The translations under genes and the position numbers were made by a program. Source: Thermodesulfobacteriota bacterium (GTDB lineage: Bacteria > Desulfobacterota_D > UBA1144 > Nemesobacterales > Mycalebacteriaceae). Taken from it: a stretch of 64,000 nt of DNA. Below are positions 29,780-42,586 of the stretch, one piece after another. The stretch covers positions 1,120,001 to 1,184,000 of the forward strand of contig OZ245366.1 in NCBI GenBank assembly GCA_965226585.1, read 5' to 3'. Under the pieces are notes generated by a model. That model saw only the letters and a program-made list of their open reading frames with translations. It was not told the origin of the DNA and made no database searches. Every line of letters starts with the position of its first letter. The first letter of the stretch is position 1.

Positions 29780-31365
29780 GTGAAACTGTCGAAATCTACG
29801 ACGTAACCCTGAGAGACGGAACTCAGGGCGAAGACATATCTTTCTCGGTGGAGGAGAAACTCCGCATAACGCGGAAACTCGCAGACCTTGGAGTGAGTTA
29901 TGTTGAAGGCGGATGGCCCGGCTCCAACGACCGCGACCGCGAATACTTTGACCGCGCCCTTAAAGAGAATTTCGGAAAATTAAAAGTCAGCGCGTTTTCA
30001 AGCACTCGCCGTCCGGGAGTAAAGTGCGATGACGATGTGATTTTACAGACGCTTCTGAAAACCGGCGTCTCAACCGCCGCAATTGTGGGCAAGGGCTGGG
30101 ATTTCCACGTAACCGCCGTTCTTGAAACAACACTTGAGGAAAACCTCGCGATGATAAACGAATCGGTCAGGTATCTGAAAGAGAGGATAGACACCGTGTT
30201 TTTTGACGCGGAGCATTTTTTTGACGGATTCAAAACAAGCCCGGACTACACAATGGAAGTGGCGCGCTCCGCGCTTGACTCCGGGGCAGACGCCGTTGTT
30301 CTGTGCGACACAAACGGCGGCTCAATGCCGTGGGAGATTGAGAGCGCGGTGGCGGAAACAAGAAAGCGGCTCGGAGGAAACCCGCCGCTTGGAATTCACG
30401 CGCACAACGACACGGAGCAGGGAGTTGCCAACACCCTTTACGCCGTCAGGGGGGGAGTGCGGCAGGTTCAGGGAACTGTGAACGGATACGGGGAAAGATG
30501 CGGAAACGCCAACCTTTGCTCCATCATACCGAACCTGTCTCTGAAACTTGGCGTTGAGTGCATTGGCGAGGGAAAGATGGACAAACTGTACGAAGTTGCG
30601 CATTTCATAAACAACCTCGCGAACTTCAACCCGCTTAAGAAAAAAGCGTTTGTGGGCAAAAGCGCGTTCGCGCACAAGGGGGGAATTCACGCGAGCGCGG
30701 TGATGAAAAACTCAGACACCTACGAGCACATAAACCCCGAACTTGTGGGCAACCGCAGACGCGTTCTCGTGTCAGACCTTTCTGGCAGGGCGAACATAAT
30801 CTCAAAAGCCGCTGAAATGGGCATAAAGATAGAACCGGCAGACAAAAGGGTTCAGGCAATTCTGAAGGAGTTGAAAAATCTGGAGAACAAGGGATACGAA
30901 TTTGAGGGCGCGGACGCTTCCTTTGAACTTCTCGTGAGAAAACAGCTTGGTCTTTATGAAAAACGGTTTTTTGTGGAAGACATCAAAACATCGGTTGAGA
31001 GAAGAGGAAAAGACGGCGAGGCGGTGTCATCGGCTGAAGTGTCCGTAAAAGTGGACGGTACGGTTGAAAAATCTTCAGCGGTGGGCAACGGTCCCGTCAA
31101 CGCGCTTGACAACGCGCTCAGGCAGTCGCTTGAGGGGTTTTTTCCGTCAATACGCGAAGTGAGTTTGAAAGATTACAAAGTGCGAGTGGTATCATCGGCA
31201 AAGGGAACGGACTCCGTTGTGCGTGTTCTGGTGGAATCGGGCGACAGCAAATCGGTCTGGAACACTGTGGGCGTTTCTGAAAACATCGTTGAGGCGAGTT
31301 GGAGAGCGCTTACCGACAGCATTGACTACAAACTGCTGAAAGAAAAACTCGCGGAAAACGCCTGA
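29776..31365 (+). CDS. cimA: citramalate synthase (LeuA family)
   Basis: DVTLRDGTQGE, EGGWPGSN, FDAEHFFDG, AHKGGIH. Confidence 0.9.
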   Translation: MSETVEIYDVTLRDGTQGEDISFSVEEKLRITRKLADLGVSYVEGGWPGSNDRDREYFDRALKENFGKLKVSAFSSTRRPGVKCDDDVILQTLLKTGVSTAAIVGKGWDFHVTAVLETTLEENLAMINESVRYLKERIDTVFFDAEHFFDGFKTSPDYTMEVARSALDSGADAVVLCDTNGGSMPWEIESAVAETRKRLGGNPPLGIHAHNDTEQGVANTLYAVRGGVRQVQGTVNGYGERCGNANLCSIIPNLSLKLGVECIGEGKMDKLYEVAHFINNLANFNPLKKKAFVGKSAFAHKGGIHASAVMKNSDTYEHINPELVGNRRRVLVSDLSGRANIISKAAEMGIKIEPADKRVQAILKELKNLENKGYEFEGADASFELLVRKQLGLYEKRFFVEDIKTSVERRGKDGEAVSSAEVSVKVDGTVEKSSAVGNGPVNALDNALRQSLEGFFPSIREVSLKDYKVRVVSSAKGTDSVVRVLVESGDSKSVWNTVGVSENIVEASWRALTDSIDYKLLKEKLAENA

Positions 31366-31377
31366 GTGTTTTCAGGG

Positions 31378-32235
31378 CTAACTGTTTTGCAGCAGGGCTT
31401 TTTGAAGCCGTTCCCATTCTTTCATATATTCGGCAAGATGAGACCGCCCTTTCGCGATCTCCTCTTCTATCATGTTCTTTACCAACTGCTGTTCTTTTAC
31501 GTAATCCCCTTTGTCAAAAAAGCCGCCGAAGTGGGCAAATCTCAGCCACAGCAGATAAGTCGTAAGGGCGTCAAACTCGTTGTATCTCACGATGTCGTCA
31601 ATTCTGCCTTCAAGCCACATGGGGGCAACCTCGTTGCCGCTAACGCCGCCCATCTTTCCGGGAACGCCGGACAGCCGCGCCAGTTCGTTAAGTGATGGCG
31701 TTGACCTGCCGCCGCCCACGATTTGCATCATATCCACGTTCCATTCGCTTGCGCTTGAGAAGTAGTCTGCGCCGTCCCATGGTTTGTCAGGTCTCCGGGC
31801 AAAATCGGGAATGGAAAGACCGTTCACAATCGCTCTCTGCACAAGGATTTTCAAATCCGCGCGGACGGAGTTATATCCAACCACCTGCGGTTTTTTCTCT
31901 CCCACGCCCCTGAGAAAAACGCCGACTATGTGAGACTCGCGCCTGTTTTCTTCGGACTGTTCACCGATGCTGGGAATTGAGTGCAGAGAGACGGAAGCGT
32001 CTCCGCTTTCGTGTTCGGTTCTTGAGACGAGGGAGAGAGAGACAACTCTGCAGAGAATGGTTTTGAGAAAAGGTCTGGGGTTTTCTTCATCCGCCCCTCC
32101 CCTTTTCCACATTTCTGAGATGACTTCTTCATCGGTCATATCTTCGGGCAGTTCGTGAACAAGTTTCCCCGCAAGCGGGTCCGGAACCCATTCAACGTCA
32201 AAAGCCCAAACCCTGTTGCGAACGGATTTAAACAT
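31378..32235 (-). CDS. PolB-like 3'-5' exonuclease
   Basis: FDVEW (ExoI), VVGYN...D (ExoII), YNEFD (ExoIII). Confidence 0.85.
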   Translation of the reverse strand: MFKSVRNRVWAFDVEWVPDPLAGKLVHELPEDMTDEEVISEMWKRGGADEENPRPFLKTILCRVVSLSLVSRTEHESGDASVSLHSIPSIGEQSEENRRESHIVGVFLRGVGEKKPQVVGYNSVRADLKILVQRAIVNGLSIPDFARRPDKPWDGADYFSSASEWNVDMMQIVGGGRSTPSLNELARLSGVPGKMGGVSGNEVAPMWLEGRIDDIVRYNEFDALTTYLLWLRFAHFGGFFDKGDYVKEQQLVKNMIEEEIAKGRSHLAEYMKEWERLQKALLQNS

Positions 32236-32265
32236 GGAGATTAGACACCCTCAAAACTTGCCTTT

Positions 32266-32487
32266 TCAGCCCTTGTCCTTTGCCAGATGGCGCAGGCAGG
32301 TTGAAAGCGCGATCATAGTGGGAGCCCATATTCCTATGAAAATTCCCAATCTCTCCGCCGAAGCGCGCATTTCAAGGTCATCGGACAGACCGCCCGTGTA
32401 ATACCACGCGCCGAGAGAAATAAACACGGAAGCAATACCGCCAACAAGAGACAGTTTGCTCAAAAACATATAGATTGAACTGCTCAT
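32266..32487 (-). CDS. small two-TM membrane protein
   Basis: Two hydrophobic helices, GIFIGIWAPT, GGAGG RBS. Confidence 0.7.
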   Translation of the reverse strand: MSSSIYMFLSKLSLVGGIASVFISLGAWYYTGGLSDDLEMRASAERLGIFIGIWAPTMIALSTCLRHLAKDKG

Positions 32488-32661
32488 AATGAACCTCCCC
32501 TATACAATTGAGGGTATAGGAGAAGTGGGGAGAACTCAATACGGGGTTGGGTGAAGAAAATGGGTACGATCTTATCCTTGATTATTGATTCACTTTCCAA
32601 TATCTTCGCCATGTACTCTCAAAAGGTCACCAACCGTGATTGCGGTAAGGATGGATAAAAC

Positions 32662-33522
32662 ATGGCGAATGAAAAAGATAGCTTTCCTACTGAAGCAGAC
32701 CTCATGTTGCCAACTCTAGAGGCTATAAATCAACTCGGCGGTTCAGGAACTAATGAGGAGATAGTCGATAAGATTATCGAAATACAAAATTATCCCACAG
32801 AGGTTCAAACCGCTTCACATACCAGAGGAAATCGTACAAAGCTGGAATATCGTGCTGCGTGGGCACGTACAAACCTTAAGAGGGTAGGGGCTATCAACAA
32901 CAGCAATCTAGGTGTGTGGTCCATTACCAAAATTGGAGGGACACTCTCTGATGAAGAAATTGAGCAGCGCATTAAAAATTTCCGTACTATAGAGCGTCAG
33001 AAACGTAGAGAAACTGCAGAAACTATTAACGAGGTTAATACTGACCTAGATGACGAAACAGACCAGAACTGGAAGGTCCAGCTACTTGATGTCTTGAAGC
33101 AGATTGAACCAAGTGCATTTGAACGGCTTTGTCAGAGAGTGTTGCGCGAGTCTGGCTTTATAAAGGTACAAGTTACAGGAAAAAGCGGAGATGGTGGTAT
33201 TGATGGCATCGGTGTTTTGCGCATAAACCTTCTCTCTTTCCAAGTTTGTTTTCAATGCAAGCGACACAAAGATAGTGTCGGCTCTAGCATGGTCCGTGAC
33301 TTTAGAGGAGCCATGATTGGTCGCTGTGATAAGGGCCTGATGATGACTACCGGTTCTTTTACATTAGATGCTAGGAAAGAAGCCACACGCGATGGTGCCC
33401 CTACTATAGATTTGATAGACGGTGAATACCTTTGCGATTTGTTAAAAAAGCTCAAATTAGGCGTACAAACAGATCTTGTTGAAGAAGTCACTCCATTAAA
33501 AGAGTGGTTTGAGAAGCTATAA
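32662..33522 (+). CDS. mrr: Mrr type IV restriction endonuclease
   Basis: Mrr_N (LGGS...WARTNL...GVW) plus catalytic FERLC, GDGGIDG, QCKR, LIDG. Confidence 0.93.
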   Translation: MANEKDSFPTEADLMLPTLEAINQLGGSGTNEEIVDKIIEIQNYPTEVQTASHTRGNRTKLEYRAAWARTNLKRVGAINNSNLGVWSITKIGGTLSDEEIEQRIKNFRTIERQKRRETAETINEVNTDLDDETDQNWKVQLLDVLKQIEPSAFERLCQRVLRESGFIKVQVTGKSGDGGIDGIGVLRINLLSFQVCFQCKRHKDSVGSSMVRDFRGAMIGRCDKGLMMTTGSFTLDARKEATRDGAPTIDLIDGEYLCDLLKKLKLGVQTDLVEEVTPLKEWFEKL

Positions 33523-33586
33523 GTCTATACGAGCAAACTATGGAAATATTTGACGCTAGGAAGTGAAAGGTGGGTTCGAGTTATCG

Positions 33587-35233
33587 TTAAGACAACAACT
33601 GTTTGACTCTTGCTTCTATATTTTTATAGACGCTTTTTAGTTTTGCCTTAGCTTCCTTCGTTAGGATTGCAGTATGTGCTACGCCATCTCGTAACGGTTC
33701 ATACTCTCTTGCGTCTCTTGTGAGGCATGCCTCTATTAAAGGATCTTTCTTGTCAACTAAAGTAGCCAAGCAACCCATTGAAAGGTAATGTAGATTGTTC
33801 GCGTCTTTCCGGATTTCAATGCTGATATTTCCTTTGTTTTTTCTCTTTTCTTCCGTTTTTTTCCATTTTTCCACTTCTTTGCGTTCTCTGGTAGATAATT
33901 CAATACCTTTTTCTTCAACATATTTTCTGAGAAGATTTTCTGAGGCAAAACAATCTGCATATGATTCAAAATTAAAACTCGCATCCGTGCGCAATTCGTC
34001 ACACCACCCTTCTACTCTCCCACGCTTTACGGAATCTGTGGGCTTCTCAACACCATCAAAAACTGCTCTTGCTAATTCTTCGGATTTTCTTTGTTTTCTG
34101 GTTTTGCGTGGATTATCGGAGTCGCCATCCTCTTTGTGTTTTTCACGCAATTCATCCCATTTTTCAACAATCGCCAATGCTACACTTTTTAACTCTTCAA
34201 GAAACTTTGTGTATTCTTTGCTTTCGGCTTTGACTTCTTCCCGACTACTCGTGAAGTGGTCAGGATCGCCAGCATCTAAAATATCAAAGTGGACTTGGCC
34301 GTACAAATAAGTTTCAGGAATTCTTGCTTTAAGAGATGGTAGATGTTTAAGGATATCAGTCTCCCGCAATCTGCCATTCACAAATAAATCGATAGAGACC
34401 CTCTCACCAACTGAATAAATGTTAAGGTCTCGTGGTTTTTTAACTGAAGCGATAAAACCCTTCACCGTATCACTCATAGAAACTGGTAGCGTCTCTTTTA
34501 CTTCGGTACAAAAATTGGTTAGGTAGGGGTCTTCAAAATCATTGATGTTCCACACAAATTGTGTTTTATCAGCCAACTGTTTCAAGGATTCCAAAGTTAC
34601 CAAATCATCGTTCAAGTAAATATTGAATCCGGGGTCCACCAAAGAAAATCTGAAATATAACGCAATGACTTTTTTTAGAAAATCATCTTTGTTGTGTATC
34701 CCATCGTTTATATCTTCAAAGTAAATAATGGTTCCTTTCCTGTGACCATCCTCAAATTGTTTAAATAGAGAATCATCACATTGCCCAAGTTCATATTCAT
34801 TTGAAGAAACATTGTCTTTTATGGCTTGATCCAATCCTGCATTATCTATTGCTCCTCCTACATATTCTCCTCCCTCAGTTTTTGATTTTATGCTGACTTT
34901 TTTAGCGCATGACAAAAGGGCAAGTTTGCCGATACCTTTTCGTCCAATGTATGGCCTTCCACTAGCAGATTTATGTCCGCCAGACATCCTTTTTGAGTAG
35001 CCAATCTTCAAAAATTTATTTTCAAAATCATTAGTCGTCATTCCTTCGCCATCATCCCGTATACACAGCATATTTGTATCTCTATTCAAATAAATATGAA
35101 CATTGCGTGCGTCCGCATCCCATGCGTTAGAAATCGCCTCTCCTAAAACGGTGGTAAAACTACGGTACAAGTTACGACCTAAATGGTTGAGGATGCTAAG
35201 AGAAATATTAAATTTGAAATTCTTATTTAGCAT
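33587..35233 (-). CDS. GHKL (MORC-like) ATPase with C-terminal Swt1-like HEPN domain
   Basis: EAISNAWDA, DDGEGM, GRKGIGK, GT motifs. C-terminus has ENLLRKY...LHYL...L...LRDGVAH (Rx4H). Confidence 0.75.
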   Translation of the reverse strand: MLNKNFKFNISLSILNHLGRNLYRSFTTVLGEAISNAWDADARNVHIYLNRDTNMLCIRDDGEGMTTNDFENKFLKIGYSKRMSGGHKSASGRPYIGRKGIGKLALLSCAKKVSIKSKTEGGEYVGGAIDNAGLDQAIKDNVSSNEYELGQCDDSLFKQFEDGHRKGTIIYFEDINDGIHNKDDFLKKVIALYFRFSLVDPGFNIYLNDDLVTLESLKQLADKTQFVWNINDFEDPYLTNFCTEVKETLPVSMSDTVKGFIASVKKPRDLNIYSVGERVSIDLFVNGRLRETDILKHLPSLKARIPETYLYGQVHFDILDAGDPDHFTSSREEVKAESKEYTKFLEELKSVALAIVEKWDELREKHKEDGDSDNPRKTRKQRKSEELARAVFDGVEKPTDSVKRGRVEGWCDELRTDASFNFESYADCFASENLLRKYVEEKGIELSTRERKEVEKWKKTEEKRKNKGNISIEIRKDANNLHYLSMGCLATLVDKKDPLIEACLTRDAREYEPLRDGVAHTAILTKEAKAKLKSVYKNIEARVKQLLS

Positions 35234-36287
35234 ATTGTTCAAGGTGATGTTTTATACTCTTTCCAATAACCGATCCCATCCTAACAGGCACAGCGTTACC
35301 TATAAACTTCGCTACTTGAGTAAGGAAAAGAGGGTCCTTTGGATTGGTAAAGAGATATCCCTTCGGGAATGTCTGAAAAATAGCCGCTTCGCGTAAACTG
35401 ATAGCCCTATCTTGCTCTGGGTGTCCGAACCTTCCGTTTCCCAAGCCAATGCATTGAGTTGTCATTGTTGGAGATGGTGCATCCCAACGCATACGACCGT
35501 AAACGGTATCTCTGTAAGTTCTTCCAGAGTCTTTTTTGTGACAAGCCAAAATCAAGCTGTTGTCCCAACTTCGAGAATCGCCACCGTTGTGCGGCGTTGC
35601 TTTTATGCGCTTAGTGTTTATAGGACTTAACTTTCTTGCTCTATGTAGAGGATCAGACTTGCTCACTTCTCCAGAATTGATCGGCTCGAGATTTTTGATA
35701 GCATCTCGGACTGTTATCTTTTTATCCTTATGCGTTTTTTTTATCAATTCAATTTCACCAAAACGAGACGCCAACAGCACCAATCGTTTTCGACTCTGAG
35801 GAATGCCATAGTCTGAGACATTGACAATTTCGTATTTGCACTTGTAGCCACCCTCATCAAGCGTATCCATAAAAGTTTTGAAGACAGGATACCTTTCTAC
35901 ATCTGCAAGACCCCTCACATTTTCCATGGAAACAATGTCTGGAAGGGTTTCCTTAATCAAATGAGCAAATTTTTCGAGTGGCTCCAACTGTTTGTTGGTA
36001 ACTTGCTTCAAATTCAATCTCGAAAACGGTTGACAGGGAGCACAACCGACTAAAACTCGGATAGCCTCGTCTTTAGGACCAAACAACTTTTCTATTTCTT
36101 TCGCATTCACATCAAGAATATCACTATGTATAAACTTCGCTTTATTATTGTATTCATAACCAAACTTACAAGAATTGTCGTTGTCTACTCCAGCGATGAC
36201 ATCAAGCCCCTCTTTAATGAGCCCGTGAGATAACCCTCCTATGCCACAAAATAAATCTATAACTTTTAATTGCTCTTTCCGCCTCAT
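35223..36287 (-). CDS. DNA cytosine-5 methyltransferase
   Basis: DLFCGIGG, PCQPFS, ENV, QSRKR, IGNAVP. Confidence 0.96.
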   Translation of the reverse strand: MRRKEQLKVIDLFCGIGGLSHGLIKEGLDVIAGVDNDNSCKFGYEYNNKAKFIHSDILDVNAKEIEKLFGPKDEAIRVLVGCAPCQPFSRLNLKQVTNKQLEPLEKFAHLIKETLPDIVSMENVRGLADVERYPVFKTFMDTLDEGGYKCKYEIVNVSDYGIPQSRKRLVLLASRFGEIELIKKTHKDKKITVRDAIKNLEPINSGEVSKSDPLHRARKLSPINTKRIKATPHNGGDSRSWDNSLILACHKKDSGRTYRDTVYGRMRWDAPSPTMTTQCIGLGNGRFGHPEQDRAISLREAAIFQTFPKGYLFTNPKDPLFLTQVAKFIGNAVPVRMGSVIGKSIKHHLEQYAK

Positions 36288-36567
36288 GATAAAAACACCA
36301 ACTTCATTCTACATTGTCGAAATCAAACTGAAAATCTCTACTTCAAACTACCGGACAACCTTTCGCACTCCAATCAAGTGATAACGACGAAACGAAAAGC
36401 CTCTTAGCCCGCCTGCGACGTTAATGTACCTGCCAATACTGAGAATTAGTTAAGTTTTCCTCGTACAACAAAAGTTTCAAAACACCAAATCAGTGAGATG
36501 GAAGAACTTAAACTTTCAATCCATCTTTTTTGCAAGACAACATCCTCTTAGTGTAAAAGAACAAAAC

Positions 36568-37101
36568 ATGCCCACAAACACCCTATTCCTTTGCACCGGC
36601 AACTCCTACTGCTCCATAATGGCGGAATATCTGCTGAAACACTACGGCGGAAACCGTTTCGTGTCTTTCAGTGCCGGAAGTTCACCTACGGGCGAAATAC
36701 ACCCGCAAAGCATCTCCACCTTGAAAAAACGAGGAGTCTCCGCTTCGGGTTGCCGCAGTAAATCGTGGGATGAGTTCTTTGGTGTCAAAGGGAGTTGGGG
36801 AGGAAATATCAGTCTCCCTGAAGGTGAGTTCATAGCTCAGCACATTGATATCGTCATAACCCTTTGCGATAACGCCGCCCGGGATGAAACCTGTCCGATA
36901 TTTCACGGCGCGCCCGTAAAAGTGCACTGGGGCGTTTCCGACCCCGCAAAGTTTGAAGGCACGGAAGAAGAAATCACAAAAGAGTTTGAGCGCGTATGCG
37001 ACATTCTGGAAAAGCGCGTCAAAACCCTTACCCAACTGCCGGTTGAAAAAATGAGCAAAGACGAACTCCACAAAGAACTAGACGCCATAGGCAAACTGTA
37101 A
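36568..37101 (+). CDS. arsC: ArsC/LMW-PTP family protein with altered P-loop
   Basis: FLCTGNSYCS (canonical CTGNSCRS), SAGS, VITLCD, CP, HWGVSDP. Confidence 0.75.
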   Translation: MPTNTLFLCTGNSYCSIMAEYLLKHYGGNRFVSFSAGSSPTGEIHPQSISTLKKRGVSASGCRSKSWDEFFGVKGSWGGNISLPEGEFIAQHIDIVITLCDNAARDETCPIFHGAPVKVHWGVSDPAKFEGTEEEITKEFERVCDILEKRVKTLTQLPVEKMSKDELHKELDAIGKL

Positions 37102-37162
37102 CCACCCTTCCCGCCCCGCCCTACGCAAACGGATATCAAAGTAATAACTCAATGCTCTTGTT

Positions 37163-37192
37163 TGTCAGATAAAACTATGTAATAATCTGACA
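37163..37192. promoter_or_regulatory. inverted-repeat operator upstream of abiEi
   Basis: TGTCAGAT-14nt-ATCTGACA. Confidence 0.55.
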
Positions 37193-37208
37193 CATAGAGG
37201 ACTTAACT

Positions 37209-37829
37209 ATGTTATCTATAACTGACAAAATTCTGCAAAGAATTAAGAACAAACGCCGTGGATGGGTGTTTGGACCGGGTGATTTTCTGGATATCGGGTC
37301 GCGAGCCGCAGTAGATCAAGTGCTTTCGCGTCTGGTAAAGCGGGATGTAATCCGCAGACAAAGCCGGGGCATATACGACTATCCTAAACATCACCCGTCA
37401 TTCGGCTTGCTTTCTCCGGACGCTGACAGCCTCGCAAGGGTGATAGCCGCAGGGGATGACATTTCTCCATCCGGTGCTATGGCGGCTAATATGCTCGGTC
37501 TTTCCACGCAAGTACCCGCAAAGCCGACCTACGTTACAAACGGTCCCTCACGCACACGCACAATTGACGGACAAATCATCACTCTGAAACATGCAAAAGT
37601 GCCGCTTCTAAAGGATGTGCCGGATAGTGTTAATCTCCTGTTGCAAGCCTTCTCATACTTGGGGAAATCAAATGTGGATGACCGGATTATCAACCACAGC
37701 GCATCAGTTCTGCCGAACAGCGATATGAGCAAACTTCACAAAAATATGAAACGACTCCCCGGCTGGCTCGCGGATGTTGTGCATAAAATTGAGGATGCAA
37801 AAAATGGACAAGTTCAACAAACTGACTGA
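37209..37829 (+). CDS. AbiEi-type antitoxin (DUF6088-like)
   Basis: DFLDIGSRAAVDQVLSRL, RGIYDYP, AANMLGLSTQVPAK. Confidence 0.88.
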   Translation: MLSITDKILQRIKNKRRGWVFGPGDFLDIGSRAAVDQVLSRLVKRDVIRRQSRGIYDYPKHHPSFGLLSPDADSLARVIAAGDDISPSGAMAANMLGLSTQVPAKPTYVTNGPSRTRTIDGQIITLKHAKVPLLKDVPDSVNLLLQAFSYLGKSNVDDRIINHSASVLPNSDMSKLHKNMKRLPGWLADVVHKIEDAKNGQVQQTD

Positions 37830-38820
37830 GGAAGACAGAAAAACCGCCTTTAAACAAGCTGCCGCAAAGCAGGGTTTTACACCCGTCATTATGGAGAAAG
37901 ACTTCTGGGTGTGCTGGACGCTGAAACAACTTTTCAGTGACGATAAGATTGGCGGTTTTTTGACTTTCAAAGGCGGAACATCCCTTTCCAAAGCATACGG
38001 TCTGATTGAGCGTTTCTCTGAAGATATCGACCTCACTGTCAACAGAGATGCCCCTTTCCTGAAGGGTGGACGGAACCCGATGGAAGACGACATTTCCGGC
38101 AAAGAACGTGGGCGGCGCATCAAATCATTAAAAGAGAACACCGGGGCTTTTGTTAAAAAGATTGTGCTTCCGGTGATGAAGAAAAGAATCAAAACCTCTT
38201 TGGGAAACCACGGGAACTGGAGTCTGAGACCGGACAAGAGTGACAACCAGACTCTTCTTTTCCATTATCCGGAGCTCACAAGTGAAGGTGGAAATGGATA
38301 CATCAAACAAACGGTTCGCCTGGAGTTCGGCGCGCGAGGTGAAATAGAGCCGAACACAAATTGTACCATCACACCCTACGTGGCTGAGCAATATCCAAAC
38401 TTGTTTGATTCTCCAAAAACCGAAGCCCGAACGCTGGCGGTGGAACGCACATTCTGGGAGAAGGTTACTATCCTCCACGCGCTTTATCATGGCGTACGTA
38501 TGCGCGACCGAATGTCGCGCCACTATTACGATACTTACACAATGGATAAGAAGGGCATAACCGGGAAGGCACTAAAAGACACCGGACTGCTGGAAAAAGT
38601 GGTTAGAAATAAGAGCCTGCTTTTCACGGATAAAAAAGCTTCCTATGAAACGGCAAAAATCGGGTCGCTCAAACTGTTGCCGGACAGCACAAAGACGGCT
38701 GAGTTAAAAAGCGACTACGGCAAGATGAGCGAGATGTTTACGGGCAAAGCTCCGGACTTTAACGATATGGTCGAGGGCTTAAAAATGCTTGAAAACAAAC
38801 TGAACTCCACCGCCCCGTAA
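37804..38820 (+). CDS. AbiEii nucleotidyltransferase toxin (type IV TA)
   Basis: EKDFWV, FKGGTSLSK, RFSEDIDL, RTFWEK, SRHYYD. Confidence 0.92.
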   Translation: MDKFNKLTEEDRKTAFKQAAAKQGFTPVIMEKDFWVCWTLKQLFSDDKIGGFLTFKGGTSLSKAYGLIERFSEDIDLTVNRDAPFLKGGRNPMEDDISGKERGRRIKSLKENTGAFVKKIVLPVMKKRIKTSLGNHGNWSLRPDKSDNQTLLFHYPELTSEGGNGYIKQTVRLEFGARGEIEPNTNCTITPYVAEQYPNLFDSPKTEARTLAVERTFWEKVTILHALYHGVRMRDRMSRHYYDTYTMDKKGITGKALKDTGLLEKVVRNKSLLFTDKKASYETAKIGSLKLLPDSTKTAELKSDYGKMSEMFTGKAPDFNDMVEGLKMLENKLNSTAP

Positions 38821-38874
38821 CCCAGCACCGGCGGTGTGTTGAACCCCTTTTTGTAATTCCAGCCCTTAAATCAA

Positions 38875-41166
<2,292 letters not shown>

Positions 41167-41194
41167 CTAACGGCTCCAATCCTGAAAACCGCGC

Positions 41195-42586
41195 TCATCC
41201 ATCTTCATTAAAAGAGATTTCAAGCAGACGCAGAGGAAGTTTGCCGCCGTTTTTAACGCGCAGAGGCACGCCGTCCGGGGCTTCAAGCAGGTCTCCCTCG
41301 GCAAGCGTAACGCTTTTGCCGCCCAGAATTGCCACCGCCTCGCCCTCAAGAACCACAACACGGGAAGCGTTTGCCTGCGGCTCATAATCCATCCTTGCAG
41401 ACACATGAACGCTTCTGACTGAAAAACCGCCGCCCTTCTCTATCATCCGCTCTGAACCCCACGCGCGTTCAGTTCGCAAGGGGCGCGAGGCTTCGGAACC
41501 GCCGCCCCGGGCAACAACCTCATCAACAATGTCTTTCACCTTGCCTGCGCGCTTCATGTCAGACACAAGCACGGCGTCTCCTTCGTCAACAATCACAAGC
41601 CCTTTCAGCCCTTCAGCCGCAACAACCCTTTCCCCGGACGAGCGCACAAGGCAGTTTTTAGAGTTCAAAACAACCGCCCCTCCGCTAACGGCGTTGCCGT
41701 CAGAATCCTTTTTCGCAAGTTTGTAGACTGACTCCCAAGAGCCCACATCATCCCACTCAAAACTCGCCGGAACAACGGCTCCAAGTTCGGTTTTTTCCAT
41801 AACGGCAAAATCTATTGAGATGTCGGGAGATTTCGCGTAACTGGCGGTGTCCGCTCCGTAAGAGTCTTCTTTTGAAAGCGATCTGCGCACGGCGGAAAAC
41901 ACACCGGGAGCGTGTTTTTTTATCTCTTCAAGCATAACGCGCCCTCTGAAAACAAAGATTCCGGAGTTCCACAGAAACGACTGCTTCACATATCTCCGCG
42001 CTGTTCTAAGGTCGGGCTTCTCAACAAAACGCCCTATTTTGAAAACGCCCTGCGGCGCGCCTTCCGCCGCATCACCCTTCTGTATGTACCCGTATCCGGT
42101 TTCGGGACGGTTGGGCTTAATTCCGATGGTAACGATAAAGCCCTTCTCAGCCGCCGCAACCGCCGTTTCAACGGCTTTCAAAAATCCGTCTTTGTCGCCC
42201 ACGTGGTGGTCTGACGGCGAAACTATAAAGATGATGTCTTCGTCCTCTTCAATGTCGGGCATGGCGCGCATAATTCCCAGCGCGATTGCCGGAGCCGTGT
42301 TTCTTGAAAGCGGTTCCGCCGCGATTTCCACTCTCGCGGATACGGAGGAATCTATGTGGGAACGGAAAGCGGCTTCCTGAGCCGCGCCAACAAGCACGGT
42401 TATGTCTCGCGCGCGGCGCGAAAGCAGGGAGATGGTCTCATTTATAAGCGAACGCCCCGAAGACAAAGAGAGAAGCGGCTTGGGATTGAGCAGACGCGAT
42501 GACGGCCACAGCCGTTTGCCCGCGCCTCCCGCCATGAGAAGGCACACCCTGTGCGGCGCTTTTACTGTTTCGTTTGAACTATCCAT
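41195..42586 (-). CDS. manC: mannose-1-phosphate guanylyltransferase with degenerate cupin tail
   Basis: MAGGAGKRLWPSS, RNTAPA, PETGYGYI, FVEKP, WNSG, WDDVGSW. Confidence 0.92.
   Translation of the reverse strand: MDSSNETVKAPHRVCLLMAGGAGKRLWPSSRLLNPKPLLSLSSGRSLINETISLLSRRARDITVLVGAAQEAAFRSHIDSSVSARVEIAAEPLSRNTAPAIALGIMRAMPDIEEDEDIIFIVSPSDHHVGDKDGFLKAVETAVAAAEKGFIVTIGIKPNRPETGYGYIQKGDAAEGAPQGVFKIGRFVEKPDLRTARRYVKQSFLWNSGIFVFRGRVMLEEIKKHAPGVFSAVRRSLSKEDSYGADTASYAKSPDISIDFAVMEKTELGAVVPASFEWDDVGSWESVYKLAKKDSDGNAVSGGAVVLNSKNCLVRSSGERVVAAEGLKGLVIVDEGDAVLVSDMKRAGKVKDIVDEVVARGGGSEASRPLRTERAWGSERMIEKGGGFSVRSVHVSARMDYEPQANASRVVVLEGEAVAILGGKSVTLAEGDLLEAPDGVPLRVKNGGKLPLRLLEISFNEDG

Follow-up and report, generated by a model that had tools for sequence, protein, structure and literature searches.

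According to the available text of three earlier papers, operons of restriction–modification (R-M) systems include paraMORC GHKL-S5 ATPases, whose C-terminal effectors vary (Iyer et al. 2008, PMC2292703). In a 2008 classification of type II restriction endonucleases (REases), R.HgiDII was a GHKL protein with an unassigned C-terminus and R.NmeAIP was Ymh-tailed (PMC2441816). Furthermore, paraMORC–Ymh HEPN fusions in R-M neighbourhoods were predicted to be PrrC/RloC-like (Anantharaman et al. 2013, PMC3710099). The window analysed here, a stretch of 64,000 nucleotides from a Thermodesulfobacteriota bacterium (contig OZ245366.1, positions 1,120,001 to 1,184,000), contains a cassette of two genes, which encode a C5 cytosine DNA methyltransferase (MTase) and a GHKL-S5 ATPase with a predicted C-terminal HEPN domain. 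Judged from sequences and structural models, the cassette is real, mobile and widespread, with a predicted ATPase-controlled HEPN effector in the restriction slot, and it belongs neither to the nuclease family of BbrUII/HgiDII nor to that of the Ymh fusions. The features of the cassette were as follows.

35223..36287, minus strand: C5 cytosine DNA methyltransferase, 354 amino acids (aa) (PF00145, PADLOC MTase_II, shared variable region, tree)
33587..35233, minus strand: fusion of a GHKL-S5 ATPase with a predicted C-terminal HEPN domain, 548 aa (open reading frame calls, profile matches, AlphaFold model)
34124..35233, minus strand: GHKL and S5-like module, residues 1–370, BbrUII/HgiDII-type (NF050001, invariant motifs, MORC/Hsp90 fold)
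35138–35140, minus strand: predicted catalytic E32 of the ATPase
33590..34036, minus strand: predicted HEPN domain, within residues 400–548 (AlphaFold2 (AF2), VIA, conservation, Swt1-like profile comparison)
33926–33940, minus strand: Ex3R motif, E432–R436
33674–33691, minus strand: R-D-x3-H motif (RDGVAH), R515–H520

Both open reading frames (ORFs) were on the minus strand, the MTase from 36287 to 35223 and its partner from the ATG at 35233 to the stop at 33587. The end of the MTase and the ATG of the partner overlapped by 11 bp (35223–35233), exactly as read in a first-pass annotation that was made from the letters alone. The MTase matched PF00145 (196 bits, E 1e-57) and PADLOC MTase_II (E 2e-85), and its FCGxGG, PC, ENV, QxRxR and GNAV motifs were intact. 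By sequence, it is a member of the family that also partners the BbrUII/HgiDII restriction enzymes.

The same annotation had seen four GHKL motifs and an S5-like region in the downstream protein, which was borne out. Motifs I–IV (E32xxxN36, DxGxGM, GRKGIGK, and GT) were invariant in 120 of 120 listed homologues, and the 548-aa protein had both these motifs and the S5 domain, as a paraMORC-type GHKL ATPase does. The AlphaFold model of the protein had a pLDDT of 85, and its ATPase part matched the ATPase modules of MORC2/3/4 and Hsp90 (Foldseek E 1e-13). Residues 6–372 aligned to positions 1–370 of the 659 positions of the NF050001 profile, with a score of 279 bits, below the cut-off of 550, compared with 651–830 bits for six full members (one from a phage and five from plasmids). 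The GHKL-S5 module stood beside a cognate C5 MTase, as in NF050001, and the full-length match to that profile, including the nuclease half, was not reached. Similarly, the REase_II profiles of PADLOC matched residues 4–369, and the match ended before the nuclease half. Among the named systems of PADLOC-DB 2.0.0, no full-length match was obtained, only this partial REase_II match and a weak one to PDC-M34B.

The cassette resembled the BbrUII/HgiDII enzymes in its GHKL-S5 module (28–32% identical to six full members), its MTase family, the MTase-then-ATPase operon and the optional Vsr. However, BbrUII/HgiDII members had 646–668 aa and a D-x-E-x-K nuclease-type motif in the C-terminal half, whereas the window protein had 548 aa and a predicted HEPN domain there instead. 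The comparison with a plain type II REase thus did not refute the reading of the first-pass annotation.

Residues 339–548 were only helix and loop in the AlphaFold model. There is thus no beta-sheet for a PD-(D/E)xK or HNH fold, in agreement with the first-pass annotation, which had seen neither nuclease. The Rx4H motif that it had placed in this tail was found as RDGVAH at exactly 33674–33691. A loose Rx4-6H arose in 33.5% of 10,000 shuffles of the C-terminal tail, and R[DNH]x3H in 1.5%. Since the loose motif is common in shuffled tails, the case for a HEPN domain rests on conservation and fold and not on the motif.

For conservation, a profile of residues 400–548 was built from 74 rows. The search of 1.84 billion 50%-identity clusters with this profile gave 250 representatives at E ≤ 0.001, and the best 150 of the 250 provided 151 aligned stretches. 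Among the stretches covering each position, R515 (124/124) and H520 (123/124) were the two most conserved columns, and the Rx4H motif therefore holds in homologues. E432 (109/111) and R436 (115/118) formed an upstream Ex3[KR] motif, and the residue after R515 was D in 111 and N in 9 of 120 close homologues. The Rx4H motif lay where the penultimate helix ends, before a loop, and AF2 modelled the isolated domain with a pLDDT of 95. In the available text of Anantharaman et al. 2013, the marks of an active HEPN RNase are Rx4-6H at a helix end, a polar residue after the arginine and an upstream Ex3[KR] (PMC3710099); residues 400–548 carried all three sequence marks. The top VIA structural match of the domain among 48,161 chains was the sacsin HEPN (Z 9.0, root mean square deviation 3.4, 98 residues aligned). 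Ranks 1, 7, 8, and 12 had HEPN in the title, and ranks 9, 10, 13, 14, and 17 were proteins or families treated as HEPN in the parts of the 2013 paper that were available (PMC3710099). Conservation and fold together support the HEPN assignment of the first-pass annotation.

The family of the domain was harder to place. Searched with the C-terminal profile, the sequences of solved structures gave no relative. In the Pfam scan of the 74 members, no family matched more than 4 of the 74 among the matches listed, and none of those listed was a HEPN family. Of the 49 weak families for these members, 25 were listed, without PF18731; there was none for the window protein, and PF18731 had 0 matches in the whole genome. 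PF09509 (Ymh) matched 0 of the 74 members, and hhalign of the domain profile against 8 Ymh domains gave a probability of 0.2–0.5%, with the shallow profile likewise giving nothing. Against 13 Swt1-family domains, the deep domain profile gave a probability of 70% and a pairwise E of 4e-5, with RxxxxH in register. The alignment score was 33, compared with a 95th percentile of 25.5 and a maximum of 35 in block-shuffled controls (n = 100), and the shallow profile reached only 0.5%. In addition, PDC-M34B of PADLOC weakly matched 11 of the 74 members, and strong matches to PDC-M34B coincided with PF18731 (Swt1-family) matches. The Atlas feature neighbours of the protein at 0.82 were Swt1-like, which is a lead only. 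Of the Swt1-like pattern claimed by the first-pass annotation, the leaning was retained through the deep profile, but the PF18731 cut-off was not reached. From the sequence comparisons, residues 400–548 are probably a divergent, uncurated HEPN domain of Swt1-like type. The Swt1-like/Abi2 HEPN domains (PF18731; PDC-M34B) had the same motif layout; however, a fusion of Swt1-like HEPN with a GHKL ATPase was absent from the available part of Table 1 of the 2013 paper (PMC3710099). Of the 150 representatives, 80 were short; a further check covered the other 70, in which 60 residues or more preceded the domain, and 67 of them matched a GHKL-S5-linker profile.

Related loci were obtained by an alignment-based search of genome contigs; a single-protein search gave no relative. 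The best 80 of 393 loci were studied; identity was 50% or more throughout, and one pair of loci was nearly identical. An MTase at least 44% identical to that of the window lay within 6 kb in 78 of the 80 loci, and in 73 it stood immediately upstream with the same orientation. This co-occurrence is tight and agrees with the MTase coupling that had been claimed. One of the two remaining loci was cut by the contig end, and the other (L056) had only an unrelated C5 MTase. The 80 loci covered more than 15 phylum labels, one of them archaeal, and the domain was found in 0 of 40 relatives of this genome. Of the 75 loci with a downstream ORF, 31 had Vsr as that next gene, and no Vsr adjoined the cassette in the window. 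Apart from Vsr, no conserved third gene was found in the 80 loci, and no separate nuclease family recurred around the cassette. A fused form of 960–2740 aa was not found, which is weak evidence. Around the cassette, the genes varied between other parts of R-M systems and housekeeping genes, and some loci had the pair on its own between housekeeping genes, such as ftsZ and lpxC in L024.

 MTases beside five true NF050001 nucleases shared the variable region with the HEPN-partner MTases. In a quick tree of 83 MTase rows, the nuclease-partner MTases were scattered among the HEPN-partner ones, two of them nested at SH-aLRT 99. The HEPN proteins formed one clade in the tree of the GHKL-S5 module (50 HEPN rows). 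The 24 rows of a careful tree comprised 14 hand-picked HEPN rows (out of 50), all 6 nucleases and 4 Ymh-type proteins as the outgroup, one long-branch row being excluded. In this tree, the HEPN clade (100/100) was nested inside the BbrUII-type nucleases at 100/99 and 96/91, and monophyly of the nucleases was narrowly rejected (approximately unbiased (AU) test, p 0.045). Because the HEPN clade nests inside the nucleases in rooted trees, the simplest reading is that the HEPN fusion would be an effector swap on the BbrUII/HgiDII chassis, with the methylase kept. The cassette was likely derived from a BbrUII/HgiDII-type R-M pair whose DNase end gave way to a predicted HEPN RNase.

Among the other known systems that resemble the cassette, the paraMORC–Ymh cassettes combine a C5 MTase, a GHKL ATPase with a C-terminal HEPN and Vsr, and an example was present in the same genome. 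However, their HEPN family differs and their GHKL part forms a separate clade (23–24% identity), so the window fusion is independent of the Ymh fusions. PrrC serves as the backup of a complete type I R-M system, whereas no cognate DNase recurred at loci of the window type. PrrC/RloC are alike in being ATPase-regulated HEPN RNases linked to R-M loci, as presented in the available text of PMC3710099, but they have an ABC ATPase instead of GHKL, and the RNase of the window is a predicted one. VcSduA (GHKL-Shedu/paraMORC3) provides experimental proof of phage defence by a GHKL ATPase, with a clamp-like dimer modelled as controlling the C-terminal nuclease; it differs in its PD-(D/E)xK DNase, which restricts directly and lets the host survive, as far as the available text goes (PMC12137116). 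Sucellos, which was also considered, is RexAB-like and unrelated, and it was set aside.

In the available portions of DefensePredictor, Payne 2024, Rousset 2022, the Tiamat preprint, the BREX survey, and the S. thermophilus preprint, the pair was not described. No experimental study of an MTase with a GHKL-HEPN partner was found in the open literature searched, and the family may be listed in subscription journals or in supplements such as that of the 2013 paper. The first-pass annotation had called the system undescribed, which was overstated, since GHKL with C-terminal HEPN in R-M neighbourhoods was predicted in 2013 (Ymh) and residues 1–370 are those of the BbrUII/HgiDII restriction-enzyme family. 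As a concept, the GHKL-HEPN design was already known, and the novelty lies in this one family of fusions, which is separate and uncurated.

The cassette likely counters phages by halting the infected cell and not by cutting the invader DNA, and the chances are about even that it acts as a methylation-gated abortive-infection system, much as the first-pass annotation had suggested. The steps of such a system can be outlined. The MTase, with its intact motifs and frequent Vsr neighbours, would methylate a target cytosine in host DNA. The GHKL-S5 dimer, with motifs intact as in the rest of its family, would clamp DNA and hydrolyse ATP. An unmethylated incoming site might then cause a conformational change, aligning two HEPN halves into a composite R515/H520 site. 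By analogy with other HEPN systems, the HEPN would finally cut host RNA, such as tRNA, and halt the infected cell. Two observations favour methylation gating: the protein occupies the restriction slot by itself, and the methylase family serves DNase and HEPN partners interchangeably, as would suit a DNA mark common to both. More tentatively, and at somewhat less than an even chance, these loci could be R-M pairs rewired to suicide switches, in which an ATP-driven clamp reads unmethylated sites and fires an RNase. At least two independent swaps on the GHKL chassis (Ymh-type and Swt1-like, both in this genome) would then have occurred, and surveys would be counting such loci as ordinary type II R-M.

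Several results weigh against methylation gating or against the steps that lead to it. The main doubt is that site recognition may lie in the lost nuclease half, and the HEPN protein would then be unable to read the mark. In L056, an apparently intact HEPN gene had no MTase of the same family within 6 kb, and in L002 a split MTase lay beside an intact HEPN gene. For the fold, a Z of 9.0 is modest and under the VIA caution level for helical bundles; non-HEPN bundles tied at Z 8.2–8.5 in the same list, and Foldseek with the isolated domain gave no match at E ≤ 0.001. The AU test was borderline, with only 6 nuclease rows. The target site was examined through GTCGAC, which is the site of M.HgiDII in the available text of PMC5867850 and was the 4th most depleted hexamer in the genome (observed/expected ratio (O/E) 0.32). 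Many other palindromes were also among the depleted words of the genome, and in the 80 related loci GTCGAC showed no depletion (O/E 1.01). The accessible part of PMC5829577 describes M.BbrUII as an adenine methylase, so the literature consulted on M.BbrUII is inconsistent.

The main rival explanation is a guard like PrrC/PARIS, in which the HEPN RNase is restrained by contact with the MTase or with a sister GHKL nuclease and is freed when an anti-restriction protein or DNA mimic of a phage attacks that partner, methylation not being sensed. The PrrC/RloC analogy proposed for GHKL-Ymh fusions in the available text of Anantharaman et al. 2013 (PMC3710099) is consistent with it, and the 11-bp overlap suggests translational coupling. 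Moreover, other R-M genes commonly neighbour the cassette, and a second GHKL gene lay between the MTase and the HEPN gene in L032 (a split BbrUII nuclease) and in L025 (628 aa, with a different tail). However, most loci had no second GHKL or nuclease to protect. Partners also appeared exchangeable, as the nearest MTases to that of the window (L012, L020, and L008; about 73%) were not in the loci of the nearest ATPases (L001 and L029). The same MTase family serves DNase partners as well, and a shared mark would tolerate exchange more easily than a protein interface. A guard of this kind is on the whole rather unlikely.

A role outside defence is more improbable. The protein would be a MutL-like helper of Vsr in T:G mismatch repair or part of a selfish addiction module, and the HEPN fold would serve only for dimerisation or as a post-segregational toxin. 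MutL-type ATPases work with Vsr in the available text of Iyer et al. 2008 (PMC2292703), and Vsr often follows the cassette (31/75), but it was not adjacent in the window or in most loci. In L005, L019, L048, and L082, the MTase was intact and the HEPN gene next to it was broken, as might be expected for a costly toxin; addiction and defence are, however, not exclusive. The top fold match was the sacsin HEPN, but the catalytic-type residues were the best conserved of the domain, which argues against a purely structural role. Direct restriction, in which a type II-like enzyme would cut DNA (or phage RNA) with its HEPN-fold domain and leave the host unharmed, is the most doubtful of all, since the exact restriction-enzyme slot with MTase and often Vsr, the REase_II matches over residues 4–369 and the GTCGAC depletion of the genome are set against PADLOC and NCBIfam matches that end before the nuclease half, the absence of the PD-(D/E)xK-type motif of the sister enzymes and the metal-independent RNase nature of the HEPN enzymes described in the available text of PMC3710099.

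If methylation gating holds, the cassette would be a minimal system, of only two genes, in which DNA methylation governs an RNase and not a DNase. The 2013 prediction for GHKL-HEPN fusions would then become directly testable, including on a copy carried by a Paracoccus plasmid. Comparison with the DNase-bearing sisters could reveal where in the poorly understood BbrUII/HgiDII enzymes the DNA sequence is read, and by what means a MORC-like clamp activates its C-terminal effector.

Some of the related loci had arrangements of their own. In L025 (2993–7626), the MTase was followed by a 628-aa GHKL protein, the tail of which looks TIR-like by eye and had no Pfam match, and then by the HEPN type. 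In L032 (2362–7656), the MTase was followed by a BbrUII-family nuclease split into three ORFs with Vsr, and then by the HEPN type. A natural Vsr–MTase fusion was present upstream of the split GHKL-HEPN gene in L048 (4467–5993). L081 (PV340563.1, 6021–9069), an E. coli phage whose gene names are P2-type, carried Dcm and a complete BbrUII-family nuclease that is annotated as paraMORC3; this pair was located between phage portal and replication genes and lends itself readily to comparison. A copy of the cassette was found on a small plasmid of a cultured Paracoccus.

In the window, the cassette was part of a variable island with the following features.

32500..41056, no strand: variable island carrying the cassette, about 8.5 kb, on the 3' side of tRNA-Ser(GCT); ends approximate
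41057–41147: tRNA-Ser(GCT)
32662..33522, plus strand: Mrr-family nuclease, convergent neighbour and island passenger (PF04471, PF14338)
36493–37101, plus strand: LMWPc (ArsC-like) gene, island cargo
37209–38820, plus strand: AbiEi/AbiEii type IV toxin–antitoxin pair, in the island
38875–41133, minus strand: catalase-peroxidase-like ORF (by eye), island cargo

The true start of the catalase is likely later, because the longest ORF call runs into the tRNA-Ser gene. In four of five same-genus genomes, both flanks were present with about 0.1, 1.1, 3.3, and 10.9 kb between them and no match to the island; the 3' side of tRNA-Ser(GCT) is an insertion hotspot in the genus. The GC content of the cassette was 39%, compared with 52% in the flanks. 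No convincing att repeat was seen in 31000–42000, and no integrase was among the island ORFs. The tRNA island with Mrr and AbiE supports a defence-island setting for the locus. Mrr was considered as a core part of the cassette and rejected, with a BLAST relative in only 1 of the 80 loci.

A second cassette was located elsewhere in the genome (G000:C1:157869-161078; L099:4869-8078), with a C5 MTase, a GHKL ATPase with Ymh HEPN, and Vsr. It was over the cut-off of PF09509, as the sole match to that family in the genome, and its ATPase and MTase were about 26% and 37% identical to those of the window, respectively. Short palindromes were strongly depleted in the 1.48-Mb genome, with O/E values of 0.10, 0.15, 0.19, and 0.23 for GGCC, GATC, CCWGG, and GCWGC, respectively, which suggests a long and heavy R-M pressure on this genome.

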